Virus record (IMG/VR): IMGVR_UViG_3300010882_000012
Direction: 5' to 3' (one strand)
From: a virus
Lineage: Duplodnaviria > Caudoviricetes
DNA length: 64,000 nucleotides
Both the position numbers and the translations under genes were made by a program. The number at the start of each line of letters is the position of its first letter. Positions within the stretch are counted from its first letter, which is position 1. Below are positions 15,015 to 62,215 of the stretch, piece after piece. The notes below the pieces were generated by a model that searched no databases, was not told the DNA's origin, and worked only from the letters and a program-made list of their open reading frames with translations.

Positions 15015-16730
15015 TTACTGCTTTACCACTTTAACCGTCCGTATCCCTATATCTGTATGAACTTTCACCATATAAACGCCAACGGATAAGTGGCTAATAT
15101 TCAAACTATTATTTCTTATCTCAGTTTGTAGGATTTTACGCCCTTCAATGTTAAATACCTCTACGAATTTGACAACCTCATCGGTTTGAATATAGAGTTC
15201 CCCATTTGTAGGATTGGGGTAAACTACCAATTTTTCGATTTCGTTCTCCGTTACGCCAACTCCTATTTTAAATACAGCTGAAATTGTGCCATTCGATTGC
15301 ACATTCGTAAATGTGTAGGTAGTTATAGCTCCTTTCGATTCACCGTTAACTAAAACGTTATCAATCACATAATTGGTTTTTGGAGCAATCGTAAATGTAA
15401 TATTGCCGCCTTCTTCAACTTTTGCATCGCCGAACGGATCTATCGTTCCCCAATCCGCATTATTTACGGTTGCTGTAATCGTATAAATATTGCCGTTTTG
15501 TTCATCCGTTTTGAATGTTGCCGAATTTGAAGGCGGTGATGCCAAATGTGTGGCGGTTTCCTTCTTTCGCTGTTTGAACGTATATGATGTGTTGGGCGTT
15601 AATCCGTTAAACACATTAGAGCTCTGCCAATTACCGTTATCCTTTTGATACTCACAACCTTCAACTGTATTCAATGTTATGGATGTAGGCGTTTTCGACT
15701 GTAATGTTGGTGTGGGCGGTGCTGTTTGGGTGGCTTTCGTAACTGTTGCTGTTGGTGATGAGGTCATACTGCCGATAACCTTTAAAGCCATATAACCGCC
15801 GCTATTATCATAAAAATCTCCAACATAAATTGTTACGGCGATTTCTTTTCCGATATCATCAGCTGTTAAAGTATAGGTTTTACTATTGCCGCCATCCACC
15901 GTAAGATAATAATCATCAATAATCGTACCATTACGTTTCCACCCATATTTTATTATTTCATAAGGCCACATTGAAAAATTGGAATGATTTACTGTTAATG
16001 TTTGACCGAAAACCGGATTGCCGCTAATTGACAAATTGGCACTGATTACGTTGATTGTGAAGTCTTTAACGAAATCGTTTGGAAATATAATATATGCACT
16101 ACCATCTTCATTAGGATATTGTATGGTTGCTCTAATTGTTGTGACTCCTTCATTTTCAGCCAAAAACCGATAAGCCAAACCACCCAAATGAGTTAGTGTG
16201 GCGTTTGCAGATCCGGGGTCAACCATTGACCACACTATTGATGGATATGACTGATTGGCTTCATAAGGAACAAATATATTATTATCAATCGGCATATACA
16301 ATGGTATATTGGCGACAGCAGTAGTTGGGATGTTGATGATGTCGGTGACTGAGAGGATGGCAGAGAAGTTTTGATTAGGCAGATTTTCGGTAAGTGGCTC
16401 TATATAAATGGATTCGGGTACAAACCGATAACCTTCTTTTTCCGGTATGAGATCTCCAAAACCACCCAGTGGAACTCCTAATACGTAATTCCCATTTGCA
16501 TTAGTTGTAGTAGATAATATATCACATCGTATGGTTGTGTTGGGTAGTGGTTGAGATGTTTGATAAATTCTAACAGTACCGGATACAGTTACCCATTGAG
16601 CATTCGCTTTCAACGGATTGACTATTGACATTATTATAAATCCCAAAACAACTATTATAAAAGCAATAGTTGAGGGAATTCCGGTACCCACTTCATTAGG
16701 GTAAGGTTTTAAATTTAAAAGATTTTTCAT
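15015..16730 (-). CDS. T9SS type-A C-terminal sorting domain protein (Ig-like/Fn3/InlB-B-like repeats)
   Basis: Signal peptide ending ANA-Q; FNGLTPNTSYTF; C-terminal VYPNP...LSVGVYMVK...KVVKQ. Confidence 0.88.
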   Translation of the reverse strand: MKNLLNLKPYPNEVGTGIPSTIAFIIVVLGFIIMSIVNPLKANAQWVTVSGTVRIYQTSQPLPNTTIRCDILSTTTNANGNYVLGVPLGGFGDLIPEKEGYRFVPESIYIEPLTENLPNQNFSAILSVTDIINIPTTAVANIPLYMPIDNNIFVPYEANQSYPSIVWSMVDPGSANATLTHLGGLAYRFLAENEGVTTIRATIQYPNEDGSAYIIFPNDFVKDFTINVISANLSISGNPVFGQTLTVNHSNFSMWPYEIIKYGWKRNGTIIDDYYLTVDGGNSKTYTLTADDIGKEIAVTIYVGDFYDNSGGYMALKVIGSMTSSPTATVTKATQTAPPTPTLQSKTPTSITLNTVEGCEYQKDNGNWQSSNVFNGLTPNTSYTFKQRKKETATHLASPPSNSATFKTDEQNGNIYTITATVNNADWGTIDPFGDAKVEEGGNITFTIAPKTNYVIDNVLVNGESKGAITTYTFTNVQSNGTISAVFKIGVGVTENEIEKLVVYPNPTNGELYIQTDEVVKFVEVFNIEGRKILQTEIRNNSLNISHLSVGVYMVKVHTDIGIRTVKVVKQ

Positions 16731-20160: not shown

Positions 20161-21432
20161 TTAACGCTCTATAATTTCAACGATATAACGAATTGTTGAC
20201 TGTTCTGTAGAATAAACCATAAACTCATTATTACGAATTGAAGTGCCGGCATGAGCATAAACACTATCAAAACCTTCACGATCAAGTTGTTTTTTATTTA
20301 AATCATAACAAGCCGATGTATGATTATAGATATGTTTTTGATTGCCCACATGAACATCATAGATTGCTAAGAAAGCTTTTTTGCTACAACCCTTTGCCCA
20401 ATAAGAACCAGAAAGAGAAGTATATCCAATAGATTTTTGTGCTTTATCTGCAAAATAAACAGAATTTCCATACATTGCACCTGTAATTATTACACCCGCC
20501 GGACGTATTAAAAGTCCGGTTTGCAAGATGTTCATCCAATTTTCATTTCTGCTACCATGCCAAAACAGTTCGCATTTTTGGTTTTTGGCTTTTGCAACAT
20601 AGCTCTTAAAGTTTCCTTCTGTTTTTTTGTTTACCACAGAAAAAGCTCTTTTGTACTGACCGGAATTGTTTCCCATCATTTTCTTAATGAGTTCTGCTTC
20701 TTTAGAAGACACTTCTTTAACTTCTAGTCCAAGTACCTCAAGCATGTCCATAGTGCTCTTAGAATTGCCCGTTTGCGTCCTGGTGGCTTCTTTTTGTTTC
20801 TTTATTGCTTCAACCTGACCCGCCATAACGTCCAAAAGTTTTTGTTCATCATCTAGCATTCGTTGTAATGATGAGGTAGAGTATCCGCTTTCTACAAGAT
20901 GGTTTTTTACGTGAGCCATTTTTCTCGGTACTGTTCGATACAATTTCAACAAACAATCATTAATAGTTGTTGAAGTACTTTGATTTCTTAAATGACCAAC
21001 CAAGTTGTCAAGGATTTTTTGAGCCTCATCAACTTGTGCTTGTGTAACATCTTCTTGAGTTACAGAATAGTTTTCTTTAATGGTTTTGTTTGCATATGCT
21101 TGGAGTTCGTCAATGAGTTGACGCACCATAGCATTCTGGATGGCGGTTACTTGTGCTCCGGTTGTAGCATCTTTGATATCGGCCTCAATCTTTTCAGTAT
21201 AGAGGTGTGTGATATCATTGTAACCTTTTTTGGTTTTTTCACGATACTTTTTATCCCAATCCGACATAGGATAAGAGTGCTCTATGGAGGTAGATTCTAT
21301 CCTGCCATAAACCACTTTAAAATTTCCATCGTTCTGCTCGAACATATGGTAAAACTTGTTGTTATTGTCCCCTGTAACACAAACCAGTTTTTTAACTTGT
21401 TTGCCTGGTACCGAGTAATCTGATATTTTCAT
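20161..21432 (-). CDS. poly(ADP-ribose) polymerase (WGR + regulatory + catalytic domains)
   Basis: NNNKFY..YGR; LYRTVP; WHGS, MYGNSVYFAD..KSIGY, NEFMVY (H-Y-E triad). Confidence 0.9.
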   Translation of the reverse strand: MKISDYSVPGKQVKKLVCVTGDNNNKFYHMFEQNDGNFKVVYGRIESTSIEHSYPMSDWDKKYREKTKKGYNDITHLYTEKIEADIKDATTGAQVTAIQNAMVRQLIDELQAYANKTIKENYSVTQEDVTQAQVDEAQKILDNLVGHLRNQSTSTTINDCLLKLYRTVPRKMAHVKNHLVESGYSTSSLQRMLDDEQKLLDVMAGQVEAIKKQKEATRTQTGNSKSTMDMLEVLGLEVKEVSSKEAELIKKMMGNNSGQYKRAFSVVNKKTEGNFKSYVAKAKNQKCELFWHGSRNENWMNILQTGLLIRPAGVIITGAMYGNSVYFADKAQKSIGYTSLSGSYWAKGCSKKAFLAIYDVHVGNQKHIYNHTSACYDLNKKQLDREGFDSVYAHAGTSIRNNEFMVYSTEQSTIRYIVEIIER

Positions 21433-30410: not shown

Positions 30411-30482
30411 AAAAATACAGCTTTTATCCTTACGATAAGATTTAAAAAGAAAAAAGTTACTAACAATTTGCATGCTAGTAAC
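30411..30482 (-). promoter_or_regulatory. Class-1 promoter with hairpin extension (terminates NAD operon)
   Basis: Motif 30451-30467. Confidence 0.8.
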
Positions 30483-30534
30483 CTTTTCCACAATCAAAAA
30501 TTCAAAAAAGTTCTCTATTCAAGAGAATTTATTA

Positions 30535-31368
30535 TTAGATCCATTCTATTACAGTCGGATCATAGTTTTTGTACATCGGAGTTTTGTAATCCTTTTCTGT
30601 TAATTTGTACCATTGAAAGTGTTTTGCAAGTTCGTTAAATTCTTTCACAACTTCTTTTTTAATTTTCTTGTTGTCAAAACGATAGTGTGAAAAAGTCATA
30701 CCACAATCTGAATCAGTGTAAGAATCACATGCCGATTTTGTAATTTTAATAGCTTTTTCTATTGCTTCTAAAACAGTCTCTCTTGTTACTAATGGTATTT
30801 CTTCAACTGGTTCCGGTTCATTAATAACATTGATGTGATTAAGTTTTAAAATTGCAATTGCTTGACGATGAGATTCATCTGTAACACAAGCACAACAACT
30901 TGCATCTACAGTAATTTTGGCTTTACGATAGATTGCTGATAAGATAATAGCATTTTGTAAAACACAAATTCCGGTACACAATCCAAAAAGTTCAATTTCA
31001 TCAATATCCTCTTCATAGATATTATAGGATTCAAAAAACTCTTGCCATTTTACAGTACCATGTGCAAACTTTGTAATAGCACTTGAATTTTGTTCTAAGA
31101 GTTCTTTCAGTTCCGGATGTAATTCAGCTCCAGGAGTATCATAAACACAATGACATACACGTAAGTCTCTACCTTCTAAAGTATGCTCATACTTGTATGG
31201 ATCCATTGGATGATTATGGTTGTCAAAAGAATGTGCAATAAAATCTCCATTCTCTATGGCTTTTTCAATTTTAGTTTTACAGTTTGCTATGATAGCATGT
31301 GCATGTGGAGAACCTAAAGTTCCTGTAATAAAATCATTTTCTAAGTCGATTGCTAAAGTAATTTTCAT
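30535..31368 (-). CDS. pncA: nicotinamidase (isochorismatase family) with C-terminal extension
   Basis: IDLENDF, DNH, HCV, K, GLCTGICV. Confidence 0.85.
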   Translation of the reverse strand: MKITLAIDLENDFITGTLGSPHAHAIIANCKTKIEKAIENGDFIAHSFDNHNHPMDPYKYEHTLEGRDLRVCHCVYDTPGAELHPELKELLEQNSSAITKFAHGTVKWQEFFESYNIYEEDIDEIELFGLCTGICVLQNAIILSAIYRKAKITVDASCCACVTDESHRQAIAILKLNHINVINEPEPVEEIPLVTRETVLEAIEKAIKITKSACDSYTDSDCGMTFSHYRFDNKKIKKEVVKEFNELAKHFQWYKLTEKDYKTPMYKNYDPTVIEWI

Positions 31369-31380
31369 ATGATTAAGTTT

Positions 31381-32247
31381 TTAAAGTTGAACATTTTTAA
31401 TTAATTTGAACATTGGTATGGCTTTAAGTTTATGCTGCGACATCAGATTTCTTCCCATTACTGTTTTCACTATACCGGGTCGGATATTTTCATTTGCAAT
31501 AAATTCCGGTGTCGCATAAAGTATGAAATCATCAAGTTGTTCATATGAAAATCCAAGTTCTTCTTCATCAGATTGACCTTCCCAAAGATCAGCACTTGGT
31601 TTTTCATTGATGATAGATTTCGGAACACCAAGATATTCAGCAAGAACATAAACCTCTCTTTTTGTGCACCAACCGAGAGGATTAAGGTCACATGCACCAT
31701 CGCCCCATTTTGTAAAATAGCCACAATAACGTTCTGAAAGATTGCCGGTACCTATTACAAAACGACTCATGAGTTGTGCCATTTGATAAAGGTGATTCAT
31801 TCGGATACGAGCACAAACATTAGCTTTTGCCAGATTTGCTGCTTCTGGTGTAAAAGATTTATCCCAAAAAAGACTATTTTCTGTAACAAGCATAGAATTG
31901 ACTGTTTTGGTAATATTAAAAGTTTGCCATTCAAAGTCAAACTTGTCAACTAATTTCACACAGCGCTGCATAGAAGAGTTGTTTCCTCTTGACATGGATT
32001 CTCCATAAGGCATGGATATGAGTTGCACCGGTACATTTGCAATTTGACAAAGTCTTGCAACAACAGAGCAATCTACACCGCCTGACATGCCAAGTACAAC
32101 ACCTTTGCGATTTGCTTTTGCTACAGCATTTGCAATCCAATCTGACATAAGATTAGCATAATGTGCAACATTTTTACTATCAATAATTTCTTGTTTTAGT
32201 TGAGCCGGCATGGGACAACTTTTGTTTAAATTTTCAGTATTTTCCAT
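31381..32247 (-). CDS. nadE: NH3-dependent NAD+ synthetase
   Basis: LGMSGGVDC, ARIRM, GTGNLSE, GYFTKWGDG, PSADLWEGQSDEEELG; start at MENTE. Confidence 0.93.
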   Translation of the reverse strand: MENTENLNKSCPMPAQLKQEIIDSKNVAHYANLMSDWIANAVAKANRKGVVLGMSGGVDCSVVARLCQIANVPVQLISMPYGESMSRGNNSSMQRCVKLVDKFDFEWQTFNITKTVNSMLVTENSLFWDKSFTPEAANLAKANVCARIRMNHLYQMAQLMSRFVIGTGNLSERYCGYFTKWGDGACDLNPLGWCTKREVYVLAEYLGVPKSIINEKPSADLWEGQSDEEELGFSYEQLDDFILYATPEFIANENIRPGIVKTVMGRNLMSQHKLKAIPMFKLIKNVQL

Positions 32248-32257
32248 TTTTGTAATT

Positions 32258-33955
32258 TTAGAGGTTGTAAACACGTTTCATTTCTTTATTATAGAGAACT
32301 TTAATTTCATCCCATGAATTTAAGTAATAAAATTCTCCATCTTTGTAGAATTCTTTGAGTAAGTTTTTGTCTCCATATGCATCTGCTTCTTCAGGAGTCA
32401 AGTTGTCAATCATAGCATAGTTGTTTTTAGATTCATCCCAAATAACAACCGGTATACCGGTAGGAGATTTTTTAAAACTGTTCTTTTCAGATTTTACGAG
32501 TTTTTGAATTTTTTTGAAAACACCTGACATGATTTCTGCAATTCCTTTTAATGCAAAACCAAACGTATCTCTCGTAACATACTGATAAGTGAATGAACCA
32601 ATTCCAAAGCTAACGTTAATACTTGCAAATCCTTTGTCTCTAAGACGTTTGCAAATTTTGAAACATCTCTCAATTGTAATAGCATCACCGTAAGTAATTC
32701 CAATATGAGAATCATGTTCCTTAAAACCGTTTGCGTTTACAGTGCCACCGAATTCATTCCAAAGTGCTTCACACAATCCCAAATCTTCTACAGTCGGTGT
32801 GTACTCTTCATAGATATCTTTCCATGGATGATAAGCCGAAATCGAATGATCATCTTCTCTTGTTACTTTCCACCAGCTTCCATCTTTTAATCTGAAAATA
32901 ACGCCTAATCTCATTTCAGCAAAACCATTATTATGATAGTATTTCTTTGCTTCTGCCATGGTTAAGAAAATTTTTGTTTCTCTTCCACAAACAACTTCAA
33001 CCGGATCACCACTGTCAGGGCGGATGAAAACTTTTCCAGGTCTTGATAAAATTTGAGGTTTTATCTCCGGCAATACAGTAGAGATAACATTCCAAAAATC
33101 GTAAGTATCTGAAACAATTGAGATGTTGCCGCTTGGATACTTCTTTGTAATAAGAGTAAGAAATCCACGAACCTCATCAATTCCCCAACTACACATTACA
33201 GAATGTTCGGTTGACGGATTACAAGAAATAGCTCCTTTTGGTTTTTGATAAAAAGCTTTAAGATAATTACGGACAGGAACAGTAGCTGAAACATTAAAAG
33301 CAAGTAGATGTCCAGGACCTGTGCGATATGCTGCTTCCGGTTGATTCATGCCTCTCATTGAAAAGTCGCCGGCTTGATTATCAACTCGGACTTCATCTAC
33401 ACCTGTTTCTCTTGCAAATTGGATGAGAATTTTTTTGTAAACGGATGAGATAGTCCCGGATGTCATTGGACTCCAGATGTAAGAAGAAAGTTGAGTTTCG
33501 ATATAGCCAGGAATCCAGAAAAATCTTGGATCTGTATTCTCAATAGTAAACATTGCAACGCCAATAGGTACAAAAGTACCTTCCGCAAGTGCTTTTACCT
33601 TAATAGGAAGATATCCTAAAGCATGTAAAGCCCTAACATGTTCAGAACCATGATTAGCCGCCCATTCTGGATTTGTCTTTTTAAAGATATCTGTAATGGT
33701 CTCTTCGTATTCTGCAACTACATCTTCAACAGGTCTAGAGAAAAAGTAATCTTGGAAATTTTGTGTGATTTCTGCTAAAGCTCCTTGTAAAGAGTAAAAG
33801 CATACATGGTTAATTCCTTCTGCTCGTGACATCCGTGGAATCCAAGTTTCTAAAATCCATTCAATACCATCAGGATATTGGGACATGTGACAAATTTTGT
33901 AGACATCTGTCATGTCCATTGGATTTTTGATCATTCTGTCGTTTAATTGAAACAT
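32258..33955 (-). CDS. NAMPT/NadV-family phosphoribosyltransferase (Namat-like; Asp219 position is Ala)
   Basis: TDVYK..H...YP, DFSMRG, STEHS, VSDTYD, IRPDSGDP, YGDAIT, TRDTFGFA. Confidence 0.92.
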   Translation of the reverse strand: MFQLNDRMIKNPMDMTDVYKICHMSQYPDGIEWILETWIPRMSRAEGINHVCFYSLQGALAEITQNFQDYFFSRPVEDVVAEYEETITDIFKKTNPEWAANHGSEHVRALHALGYLPIKVKALAEGTFVPIGVAMFTIENTDPRFFWIPGYIETQLSSYIWSPMTSGTISSVYKKILIQFARETGVDEVRVDNQAGDFSMRGMNQPEAAYRTGPGHLLAFNVSATVPVRNYLKAFYQKPKGAISCNPSTEHSVMCSWGIDEVRGFLTLITKKYPSGNISIVSDTYDFWNVISTVLPEIKPQILSRPGKVFIRPDSGDPVEVVCGRETKIFLTMAEAKKYYHNNGFAEMRLGVIFRLKDGSWWKVTREDDHSISAYHPWKDIYEEYTPTVEDLGLCEALWNEFGGTVNANGFKEHDSHIGITYGDAITIERCFKICKRLRDKGFASINVSFGIGSFTYQYVTRDTFGFALKGIAEIMSGVFKKIQKLVKSEKNSFKKSPTGIPVVIWDESKNNYAMIDNLTPEEADAYGDKNLLKEFYKDGEFYYLNSWDEIKVLYNKEMKRVYNL

Positions 33956-55458: not shown

Positions 55459-56214
55459 TTAACAGTCTACGTAATCATTCCATAATTGATTTGCACTTGT
55501 AGCCTCGCTAGAAACTTGATTATCCCAAACAGGATAAAGTGTCCAACCATTTGAACTTTTCTTGATAATAATTTTATCACAAAATAGTTCTGGATCGTAT
55601 TCTCTTCTACCATTTTTGGTTGTCATTTTCATCCAAGTTAAATACTGTCTTCCATGACTCTGCACAAATTGTTTCCAAACTTCTTGCTTAAACTCTTCGG
55701 GATTAAGTTTGAGATATCTTCCATAATCTGTAATACCACCACAAAGCCCTATACCAAGATAAGACTCATTAAAAGTTTGCTTTCCTTCGTAAGTACCTTC
55801 AAAGTCAATAATTTCGTAAAGTATTGCAAGATCCGCTTCTATTGCACTATCATAAACTGAAACTTTTGTCTCATACAATTTTCCATTACACTTTGGACAA
55901 ACTCCTGTGATTATCGGTTTTTCAAACCAAATTCTACCATCTCCATTACAATGTTCACATTTTACTTTGCACATTTGCATTTTTCCAAATGCTTTCTTTT
56001 CTTTCTTGATGTAACCTTTAGCATCACATTCTGGACAAGGTTTGAAAATTTCAAAAGTTTTTCCTATGCACTCTTCGGTTATTCTATCATTATGTGCGAT
56101 GTAGGTACATCCACATCTTTTAGTAGCTCCAACTTCACTGTAAGTAATTTTTCCTGTTTTAGGATCTCTACTTAATCTCGATGTTGTCAGTTTGTTTAAT
56201 TGTTCTTGTGTCAT
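55459..56214 (-). CDS. DnaJ-type CxxCxGxG zinc-finger protein
   Basis: CPECDAKG, CEHCNGDG, CPKCNGK. Confidence 0.75.
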   Translation of the reverse strand: MTQEQLNKLTTSRLSRDPKTGKITYSEVGATKRCGCTYIAHNDRITEECIGKTFEIFKPCPECDAKGYIKKEKKAFGKMQMCKVKCEHCNGDGRIWFEKPIITGVCPKCNGKLYETKVSVYDSAIEADLAILYEIIDFEGTYEGKQTFNESYLGIGLCGGITDYGRYLKLNPEEFKQEVWKQFVQSHGRQYLTWMKMTTKNGRREYDPELFCDKIIIKKSSNGWTLYPVWDNQVSSEATSANQLWNDYVDC

Positions 56215-58700: not shown

Positions 58701-59660
58701 TTAAAAAATTTGAATAATGTTTGGTTTTCTACAAAGTCTGTTTTGATTTGATTTATCAAAACCATAATTTAAATTCATTCCTAAAATATCAAGTTCTTTA
58801 TCTGTATACTTATCCCAATCTTTAAATGAATTGGTAAAAGTAACTTCGTTGTAATTCCACAAAAGATTGTAGACTCCACCTTCTTGAATCATATGAGAAA
58901 CAATAATAGCTTTTGATTTAACACCAAGTTCATCAAGCTTTTCGGCAAGCTTTACAAAAGTACCTCCTAAATCACAAAGATCATCTACTACAAGTACATC
59001 TCTATTTTTTAAATCAATGTTAGTATTGACCTGTTTTAAAACAATTTTTTGTTGTGAACATTTTTCTGCTACTTGTATTATAATTCTTTCCTTTTCAAAA
59101 CAAACAATTTCTGGATTTAAAACTTTGTGTCCAATATCTTCTTTAAAATTATCTGCTGCACCTTTATCAGGAAAAACTAGCACCTTTTTATCAGTTGTAA
59201 TGGACTTTAAAAGTTTAGACAAACCTTTACCTCCATTTGCCTCAATAACTCCACAGTAACCAAAATATGGCAAAATATTGTCAAATTTTACAGGTACTTC
59301 CAAGTTGTCTAAAAGAGACTCTTTATTATGAGGTGTAAAAATTCGTACTAATCTTGGTTCTAATTCATTAATAGCTCTACAAATGATTTTCAAATTAAAT
59401 GCTGCATTGAAATTAAAAACTCTGTCATTTCTCATACACATGAGATATGGAAAGTAAATCTCTTCTATTACAACCTCTTGACGACGTAAAATATCACCAA
59501 CTTGTTCCATCAAAAATCTATCTTCCGGTGTAACCAACCTCATAATAATTTTCGCGCGATGTTTGCGATTTAAATCTTTAAGTTCAACTTGGATATCACC
59601 ATCGGGAAATCGGTGAATTTTTTTAATCCCTTGTCCTGTAATAAAGTTTATTGTATTCAT
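58701..59660 (-). CDS. PRPP synthetase-like protein (Adps/NARP1-type candidate)
   Basis: FPDGD, PYL...RNDRVF, PH, FPDKGA, VVDDLCDLGGTF. Confidence 0.88.
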   Translation of the reverse strand: MNTINFITGQGIKKIHRFPDGDIQVELKDLNRKHRAKIIMRLVTPEDRFLMEQVGDILRRQEVVIEEIYFPYLMCMRNDRVFNFNAAFNLKIICRAINELEPRLVRIFTPHNKESLLDNLEVPVKFDNILPYFGYCGVIEANGGKGLSKLLKSITTDKKVLVFPDKGAADNFKEDIGHKVLNPEIVCFEKERIIIQVAEKCSQQKIVLKQVNTNIDLKNRDVLVVDDLCDLGGTFVKLAEKLDELGVKSKAIIVSHMIQEGGVYNLLWNYNEVTFTNSFKDWDKYTDKELDILGMNLNYGFDKSNQNRLCRKPNIIQIF

Positions 59661-61720: not shown

Positions 61721-62215
61721 TTAAGGAAAATGCATGACTTTCGGTTGACTTTTTAGACAATGAGTTTCACCAAACCATTTTTTAGCCTCTTCAATTTTAT
61801 TGTACTTAAACAATTCTCTAACAAAAGAAGATGAACAAATCGCATGTTCTGGTTTTGCTAAAAGAAAAACAGTCTCAATATCTCCTAATAATTTGTTGAT
61901 ATGGGCGAGGTCTTTCTCGTATTGAAAATCAACAGAATTTCTAAGACCTCGTACAACTACAAAATCTTTAGTTTCTAAAGTTTTGCAAAAATCTACTGTT
62001 AAAAGATCTGATGTTTTTACTGTTACTCTTCCATCATATTGAAAACATGTTTCAATTGATTTAATTCGATCATCTAAATTAAAGTATGATTTTTTTGAAC
62101 TATTAATAGCAATCAAAATGATAACTCTATCAAAAAGTTGCAAAGAACGTTCAACAATATCATAATGACCTATTGTAAAAGGATCAAAAGATCCTGGGAA
62201 TACAGCAATTTTCAT
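61721..62215 (-). CDS. coaD: phosphopantetheine adenylyltransferase
   Basis: AVFPGSFDPFTIGH, VRGLR...DFQYE, SSSFVRE. Confidence 0.92.
   Translation of the reverse strand: MKIAVFPGSFDPFTIGHYDIVERSLQLFDRVIILIAINSSKKSYFNLDDRIKSIETCFQYDGRVTVKTSDLLTVDFCKTLETKDFVVVRGLRNSVDFQYEKDLAHINKLLGDIETVFLLAKPEHAICSSSFVRELFKYNKIEEAKKWFGETHCLKSQPKVMHFP

Follow-up and report, generated by a model that had tools for sequence, protein, structure and literature searches.

The NAD cassette and its three enzymes

The stretch of DNA analysed here, the window, is the final 64 kb of a 146,406-bp virus contig (IMG/VR record IMGVR_UViG_3300010882_000012; Caudoviricetes) with an estimated completeness of 56%, and nearly all of its open reading frames (ORFs) lie on the minus strand. 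We analysed a cassette of three tightly packed, co-oriented minus-strand ORFs for the metabolism of nicotinamide adenine dinucleotide (NAD+), together with a fourth gene, which probably encode a nicotinate-type version of NARP1, the phage NAD+ reconstitution pathway made up of Adps and Namat. The original prediction of three adjacent genes in the same direction was confirmed, with family matches for all three products (565, 297 and 277 amino acids). The features are as follows.

32258-33955, minus strand: putative Namat-like transferase of an Ala/Ser subfamily (565 amino acids; 433 bits to crystal chain 9w5x)
31381-32274, minus strand: ammonia-type, single-domain NadE (297 amino acids; TIGR00552, 225 bits)
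30535-31368, minus strand: predicted PncA-type nicotinamidase (277 amino acids; Isochorismatase, 62.9 bits, and motifs)
30449-30520, minus strand: two terminator-like hairpins with T runs, directly 3′ of the pncA stop (17-pair stem at 30489-30449)
58701-59660, minus strand: Prs/Adps-like pyrophosphokinase (319 amino acids), 25 kb upstream of the cassette

When NadE is read from the GTG start at 32274, its gene overlaps the Namat-like gene by 17 nucleotides; an alternative in-frame ATG lies ~10 nucleotides past the stop of the Namat-like gene, and the spacing between the NadE and PncA genes is 12 nucleotides. Because of this tight spacing and the two hairpins with T runs after the last stop, the three genes seem to be the last of a single transcript, with the hairpins probably marking its 3′ end. 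Directly upstream of the Namat-like gene we found small ORFs only and no adjacent Adps gene. A scan for sigma-70 promoters gave no useful signal (35 sites, with 25.7 expected, and a model ill-suited to a Bacteroidota phage), and none of 50,697 phage records matched the three genes in a Megablast search.

The 297-amino-acid protein matched NAD_synthase (219.8 bits) and passed the nadE model TIGR00552 well above its cut-off of 63.65. It carries the PP-loop SGGVD in a single domain with no glutaminase domain, indicating an ammonia-type enzyme. The 277-amino-acid protein exceeded the Isochorismatase cut-off of 27 and scored 26 bits against the NCBIfam PncA equivalog NF008623, below the cut-off of 174, and is thus a divergent member. 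Its classification as a PncA-type nicotinamidase goes beyond the Pfam match. The triad was read by eye as D8/K107/C131, where Lys107 rests on an alignment shift of one to two residues, the predicted metal ligands are D49/H51/H73, and the motif HCVxxTxGAEL is represented by CHCVYDTPGAEL. Furthermore, five PDB entries matched the protein; 3s2s and 3pl1 are named nicotinamidases, and the other three (5zn8, 6a8l and 6kua), though named otherwise, are presumably nicotinamidases of Bacillus subtilis or Staphylococcus aureus. The protein also bears a 95-amino-acid C-terminal extension (residues 183-277; 30535-30822) with no family match, whereas the nicotinamidases of related cassettes are 176-186 amino acids long and are without it. 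Neither the extension nor the downstream DUF7258 gene was similar to the ORF after PncA in the closest relative.

The 565-amino-acid protein matched the NAPRTase family of Pfam (92.7 bits) and narrowly passed the NadV/NAMPT-type model NF006629 of NCBIfam (411 bits; cut-off 405). When it was compared with the PDB using phmmer, the top matches were the crystal chains 9w5x and 9w5w at 433 bits, and bacterial and human NAMPT scored 142-159 bits. The residue numbering of 9w5x and 9w5w agrees with that of the SPbetaL1 Namat described in PMC12774641. All of the Nampt-like core was present (F198, R201, the catalytic H251, R312, D314, G423-D424 and G453-S454), the Namat core being defined as F189, R192, the catalytic His, R306, D308, G360-D361 and G390-S391. 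The Namat selectivity clamp consists of the loop residue Arg40 and a helix motif, GSXphiXphiXphiTRD, in which positions 3 and 7 are aromatic (PMC12774641). The corresponding helix of the phage protein reads GSFTYQYVTRD at 453-463 and R44 stands for the loop Arg, so that the adenine-clamp residues R40, F392, Y396, T398, R399 and D400 of Namat become R44, F455, Y459, T461, R462 and D463. All of the ribose-, phosphate- and adenine-binding residues, the clamp included, were unchanged.

The pyridine side of the pocket differed. In a gapless alignment of the query GHLLAFNVSATVP with Namat GHLLSFTGTDTIP, Ala224 falls on Asp215, bearing out the earlier claim of an Ala at the position of human NAMPT Asp219. 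We equated Namat Asp215 with human Asp219 because the neighbouring F189/R192/R306 match human F193/R196/R311, and since the block is invariant on both sides the change from Asp to Ala is no accident of alignment. Asp215 hydrogen-bonds the amide of nicotinamide in the Namat crystal and is listed with Ala242 among the nicotinamide-pocket residues; its replacement in Namat D215A lowered nicotinamide-dependent NAD+ synthesis ~8-fold, with some activity left (PMC12774641). The human Asp219 has been described as fundamental to the substrate specificity of NAMPT. The phage protein therefore lacks a defining Namat feature, and two further pocket positions were altered, with Gly196 for His187 and Ser248 for Ala242. 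Human His191, the counterpart of Namat His187, sits in the NAMPT inhibitor tunnel beside the nicotinamide pocket. In addition, Ser239 of Namat is Cys245 in the phage protein. As judged from this alignment, the pyridine side of the active site is remodelled and the donor side is not.

Two other observations concern the gene itself. The protein contains a 66-amino-acid insert (residues 326-391; 32783-32980) relative to SPbetaL1 Namat and to the 502-amino-acid Sphingobacterium proteins, without intein-like ends. The public gene call (P0002, 542 amino acids) starts at Met24 and drops Asp17 and Tyr19 (33887-33955), which correspond to Asp13′ and Tyr15′ of Namat, both of them nicotinamide-binding; the longer 565-amino-acid reading frame is the correct one.

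A Namat subfamily linked to NadE and PncA

The altered pocket was examined across homologues. Among the best 120 homologues from 5.8 billion proteins, the Asp215 position was held by Ala in 106, Ser in 10 and Asp in 5, and the nearest of them were chromosomal proteins of Sphingobacterium and Myroides with ~53% identity. In a phylogeny of 191 sequences, the Ala/Ser proteins formed one clade (FastTree support 0.98; IQ-TREE SH-aLRT 93.5). Removal of the 25 most discriminating columns left the topology with a single clade ahead by 17.5 log-likelihood units (p-AU 0.72). Neither the trees of the two programs nor this column-removal test gave evidence that the change from Asp to Ala arose more than once. 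Comparing the 53 clade members with the 138 Asp/Glu sequences, we found Ala (43/53) or Ser (10/53) at the Asp215 position in the clade and Asp or Glu in all 138 outside it, Gly for His187 in 50 of 53 against 0 of 138, and Ser for Ala242 in 51 of 53 against 0 of 138. Ser239 was replaced by Tyr or Gly in the clade and, like these three, was among the best-separating positions. The catalytic-core residues were invariant in 53/53 members, and the adenine-clamp residues were kept in 49-53 of the 53. These comparisons indicate that Asp-to-Ala/Ser is the mark of one monophyletic Namat subfamily with three pocket changes, rather than a point change. The signature Gly196, Ala/Ser224 and Ser248 offers a simple annotation rule for genes that are now named nicotinate or nicotinamide phosphoribosyltransferase indiscriminately.

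The neighbourhoods of Namat-like genes were then surveyed. Scanning viral contigs with a single protein had turned up one distant locus, so an alignment served as the query instead. In all, 162 loci were examined (160 drawn from viral and bacterial collections with flanks of 8 kb, and two others), 30 of them with Ala and 132 with Asp or Glu. These were searched with the NadE, PncA and Prs-like proteins of the window and with SPbetaL1 Adps. An Adps/Prs-like gene lay within 8 kb in 30/30 Ala loci and in 119/132 Asp/Glu loci. A clear NadE match was found within this distance in 25 of the 30 Ala loci and a PncA match in 13, as compared with none of the 132 Asp/Glu loci in either case. The original prediction had asked whether loss of the Asp goes together with pncA and nadE neighbours, and it did: 28/30 Ala loci had NadE and/or PncA within 8 kb against 0/132 Asp/Glu loci, and the remaining two Ala loci showed a weak PP-loop match only. 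The Adps/Prs-like gene of the Ala loci was mostly an orthologue of SPbetaL1 Adps (151-234 bits), and we found no NadD-like gene in the 8-kb flanks of the 30 loci.

The linkage to NadE and PncA has persisted through rearrangements of the gene order and through transfer between phyla and phages. The closest relative (P0003, 66% identity) has the order Namat-NadE-isochorismatase, as in this phage; a 116-kb phage contig (L006) carries Adps-Namat(Ala)-NadE-PncA with overlapping ends; and a Nomurabacteria contig carries PncA, an Adps-like gene, Namat(Ser) and NadE. That similar gene sets might exist in bacteria had been anticipated, and they were found in Sphingobacterium, Clostridium and Nomurabacteria. 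In the order to which one cassette-bearing metagenome-assembled genome (MAG) belongs, a search of 61 genomes found the gene in that MAG alone, which left nothing to compare it with. Two bacterial cassettes end in NrtR, a repressor for which ADP-ribose is the most effective inducer (PMC2330246). Sphingobacterium genomes with the cassette also carry canonical PncB, and for this reason the cassette is not merely a replacement NAPRT. In the Nomurabacteria contig, a gene of the metallo-beta-lactamase fold that matched the anti-Pycsar Apyc1 family (L167:5392-6114) directly follows the cassette.

These results bear on an explanation in which the enzyme still uses nicotinamide, as in plain NARP1 or NAMPT, and PncA and NadE are separate salvage genes that merely adjoin it. 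An intact catalytic core and the residual nicotinamide activity of Namat D215A would fit such an enzyme. However, three pocket positions changed together and are fixed across a broad clade, the NadE/PncA linkage is absolute in the Ala clade, absent outside it and outlasts changes of gene order, and an adjoining nicotinamidase would compete for the substrate. We therefore regard continued use of nicotinamide as highly improbable. The predicted preference for nicotinate gained strong support, in that the subfamily with the three-position pocket, and only that subfamily, is linked to NadE and PncA, and nicotinate is quite likely the pyridine substrate of the 565-amino-acid enzyme.

The phosphoribosyl or ADP-ribosyl donor

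We wanted to gain insight into the second substrate, which may be ADP-ribose pyrophosphate (ADPR-PP), the product of Adps, or phosphoribosyl pyrophosphate (PRPP). A search across the 146-kb contig returned no second Prs-like gene beside that at 58701-59660. Its protein matched phrog_619 (127.5 bits) and scored 72.6 bits against TIGR01251, below the cut-off of 113. In ICP1 Adps the residues R87, H121, D161, K185, D212 and D213 and the PP loop have been highlighted, and the phage protein keeps these six residues as well as C215, D216 and F221. Loss of the PRPS C-terminal helices is an Adps feature, and the C-terminus of the phage protein is ~40 amino acids longer than that of Adps. Relatives of the protein (125-149 bits) were found 9-536 nucleotides from Glu-type Namat-like genes in seven viral loci. 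In crAss-like phages, the relative in cr111_1 lies one gene off a Namat-like gene and that in cr85_1 is directly adjacent to one; Lak phages carry relatives too. Given that Namat-like genes adjoin or neighbour its close relatives in the seven viral contigs and in crAss-like phages, we tentatively read the 58701-59660 gene as an Adps-type partner, and its product is a candidate for the supply of ADPR-PP. The Glu-type genes form a third Namat-like class, with Glu at the Asp215 position (GSET), on viral contigs L019, L034, L043, L045, L065, L077 and L084, always paired with the Prs-like subfamily of the 58701-59660 gene.

A one-step synthesis of nicotinic acid adenine dinucleotide (NaAD) from ADPR-PP would need no mononucleotide adenylyltransferase, and the original prediction had reported no such enzyme for nicotinamide mononucleotide (NMN). 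Within the window this held: the ORF at 61721-62215 (minus strand) was considered as the missing enzyme and rejected, since it is CoaD (TIGR01510, 148 bits; cut-off 103.3). This phosphopantetheine adenylyltransferase of coenzyme A biosynthesis lies 2 kb from the Prs-like gene. Elsewhere on the contig the claim was weakened by a 215-amino-acid protein of the cytidylyltransferase fold (L003:1420-2067), encoded outside the window and ~100 kb from the cassette. It scored 36.9 bits against CTP_transf_like, and its best specific matches were NadD models at 17-26 bits, below cut-offs of 112-315. A full-length alignment with gp281 of phage G gave 22% identity, and its Atlas neighbours were unnamed viral clusters. 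A search of the contig for a Nudix gene found none; no search was made for PnuC or NadR.

These findings have to be weighed against a variant of the Preiss-Handler pathway. In this case the Namat-like enzyme would join nicotinic acid and PRPP to nicotinic acid mononucleotide (NaMN), the Prs-like enzyme would make the PRPP, a NadD of the host or the 215-amino-acid protein would convert NaMN to NaAD, and NadE would finish the route. The altered pocket and the association with PncA and NadE are equally compatible with this pathway. On the other hand, it gives no reason for the conservation of the adenine clamp across the whole clade, the partner gene in the relatives is an orthologue of a proven Adps, and PncB is already present in Sphingobacterium. 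Moreover, Bacillus phage G shows that a PRPP-type phage cluster uses a PncB-type enzyme together with NadD. No NadD-type gene was seen in two small cassette-bearing MAGs of Clostridia/Bacillota (1.1-1.3 Mb), which come without a completeness figure and thus give a lead only. An ADPR-PP donor is supported by the kept clamp, the Adps orthologue in the relatives, the PncB of Sphingobacterium, the adjacency of NrtR and the contrast with phage G.

Several points weigh against the complete ADPR-PP route. The linkage of PncA and NadE shows a deamidated route and is equally expected with NaMN, so that it does not tell PRPP from ADPR-PP. Since the Ala/Ser clade arose once, the 30-to-0 association is one retained event and not repeated evolution. 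Namat itself retains PRPP activity in vitro (PMC12774641). The clamp motif does not exclude PRPP and, it seems, does not by itself fix the donor, because Asp-type homologues with the full motif adjoin NadD-like genes in Flavobacterium (0.1-1.5 kb away in loci L139, L144, L147, L151, L159, L160, L162 and L163); in these same loci the Prs-like gene is distant or missing. The Prs-like gene of this phage is 25 kb removed from the cassette and is of a divergent crAss/Lak-phage type. Its protein scored nearly the same against SPbetaL1 Adps (54.7 bits) as against archaeal PRPP synthases (~53 bits), and the residues that it has in common with Adps are mostly PRPS residues too. The 215-amino-acid protein has the NadD-like motifs GGKFSPFHSGH (GxFxPxHxGH) and SATEIRE (SATxIR), and NadD is present in 4/5 cassette-bearing bacterial genomes. 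Thus the claim that the 58701-59660 gene makes ADPR-PP stood as regards the Prs-like family and was weakened by the remote position, the divergence and the nearly equal scores; likewise the predicted ADPR-PP donor was less firmly supported than the nicotinate preference, by the clamp and by the Adps orthologue of the relatives. Taken together, we consider the Preiss-Handler variant unlikely, though worth serious attention as the leading alternative.

The best solved relative of the phage NadE is 3fiu (146.6 bits), which we take to be the Francisella (F. tularensis) enzyme, an NMN synthetase that prefers NaMN; this counts on the same side. It would fit a route in which nicotinic acid and PRPP give NaMN, NadE converts NaMN to NMN and an NMN adenylyltransferase completes NAD+, and the 215-amino-acid nucleotidyltransferase on the contig could serve for the last step. 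The steps from NaMN through NMN to NAD+ have been described (PMC3376133). Yet the margin of 3fiu over ordinary short NadEs (127, 125 and 122 bits) is small, no cassette contains an adenylyltransferase, and such a route would not explain why the clamp is conserved or why Adps is the partner. This was the least probable of the explanations considered.

Proposed route, genome context and comparison with known systems

Based on the residues and gene neighbourhoods, we propose a four-step route. The nicotinamidase would convert the nicotinamide released by NAD+ cleavage to nicotinic acid, and the Prs-like kinase encoded at 58701-59660 would pyrophosphorylate ADP-ribose to ADPR-PP. The Namat-like enzyme would join nicotinic acid and ADPR-PP directly to NaAD, which NadE would amidate to NAD+ with ATP and ammonia, so that the route could run without a mononucleotide adenylyltransferase. 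All of the substrates, above all those of the reaction nicotinic acid + ADPR-PP to NaAD, and likewise the biological role, are inferred. A deamidated version of NARP1 with the complete ADPR-PP route is, in our judgement, probably the best explanation of the cassette. For the Ala/Ser subfamily as a whole, we lean somewhat towards a nicotinate ADP-ribosyltransferase that synthesises NaAD in a single step and that, with PncA, Adps and NadE, would constitute a fourth, adenylyltransferase-independent route in phages, Bacteroidota, Clostridia and candidate-phyla bacteria, under NrtR control in bacteria.

The cassette could counter defence systems that deplete NAD+, or it could supply NAD+ for an enzyme of the phage itself. 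A 423-amino-acid PARP-like protein is encoded 9 kb downstream of the cassette (20161-21432, minus strand); it matched the Pfam PARP catalytic domain (76.7 bits) and aligned with both the helical regulatory domain and the catalytic domain of PARP1, and the His, Tyr and Glu positions seem to be conserved. Because the phage thus has its own nicotinamide-releasing consumer of NAD+, the cassette may serve this enzyme besides, or instead of, counter-defence. The original prediction had further suggested that the route takes away PARP-inhibitory nicotinamide and may keep the pool in the form of NaAD; the PARP-like gene is indeed present, but both suggestions are speculative.

The window shows some further features. 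The G+C content is 33-37% across 13000-38000 and drops abruptly to 25-29% on either side, at about 13 kb and 38 kb; this block contains the NAD cassette and the PARP-like gene. A 571-amino-acid protein (15015-16730, minus strand) has a C-terminal sorting domain of type IX secretion (46.4 bits). This domain suggests a Bacteroidota host, with which the Namat (Sphingobacterium-like) and the Prs gene (crAss/Lak-like) are consistent. Finally, a 251-amino-acid protein (55459-56214, minus strand) gave weak matches to the DnaJ CXXCXGXG zinc finger and to APOBEC_C-like models, all under their cut-offs.

Depletion of NAD+ is among the commonest bacterial anti-phage strategies, and three NAD+-restoring routes of phages are known. 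If the proposal is true, a fourth route, via nicotinic acid, would add the enzyme reaction nicotinic acid + ADPR-PP to NaAD to NAD metabolism. It would explain why nicotinamidase and NAD synthetase travel with Namat-like genes, it would make the NrtR-linked bacterial operons modules for the recycling of ADP-ribose, and defences or inhibitors that target nicotinamide-dependent steps might not affect it. In the literature searched we found no description of this reaction, or of a Namat/NARP1 route with NadE or nicotinamidase.

The nearest known system is NARP1 (Adps plus Namat), which has been reported from the phages SPbetaL1, Bas63 and ICP1 and from Paenibacillus foliorum (bioRxiv 10.1101/2024.02.11.579819; PMC12774641; PMC13586617); the NARP1 preprint makes no mention of nicotinic acid, NadE or PncA (bioRxiv 10.1101/2024.02.11.579819). 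The cassette resembles NARP1 in the Namat fold, the catalytic core, the adenine-clamp motif with its loop Arg and the Prs-like partner, and in the logic of rebuilding NAD+ from ADP-ribose and a pyridine base. It differs in having Ala for Asp215, Gly for His187 and Ser for Ala242, in requiring four enzymes in the proposed route instead of two, through the addition of nicotinamidase and NAD synthetase, and in the predicted product of the transferase, which would be NaAD where that of NARP1 is NAD+. In this phage, furthermore, the Prs-like gene is not adjacent. NARP2 (Nampt and a bifunctional Nmnat) and NARP3 (PnuC and a NadR-like protein; PMC13464706) are likewise phage-encoded means of NAD+ restoration, but these run via NMN and need an adenylyltransferase.

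With the Preiss-Handler pathway (PncA, PncB, NadD and NadE), which is found as a cluster in Bacillus phage G (gp275, gp277, gp281 and gp283), the cassette has PncA, NadE and the predicted intermediate NaAD in common. The phage G cluster includes NadD and a PncB-type enzyme that scored 27.7 bits against the 565-amino-acid protein, whereas the cassette has a Namat-type enzyme with a Prs/Adps-like gene and no NadD in the cassette. In bacteria, the relatives of the cassette are operons of Prs-like and NadV-like genes that stand beside NrtR, comparable to the known NrtR-controlled prs-nadV operons (PMC2330246). The latter were read in 2008 as PRPP synthetase and nicotinamide phosphoribosyltransferase, and neither an altered pocket nor a fused nadE was noted in them.

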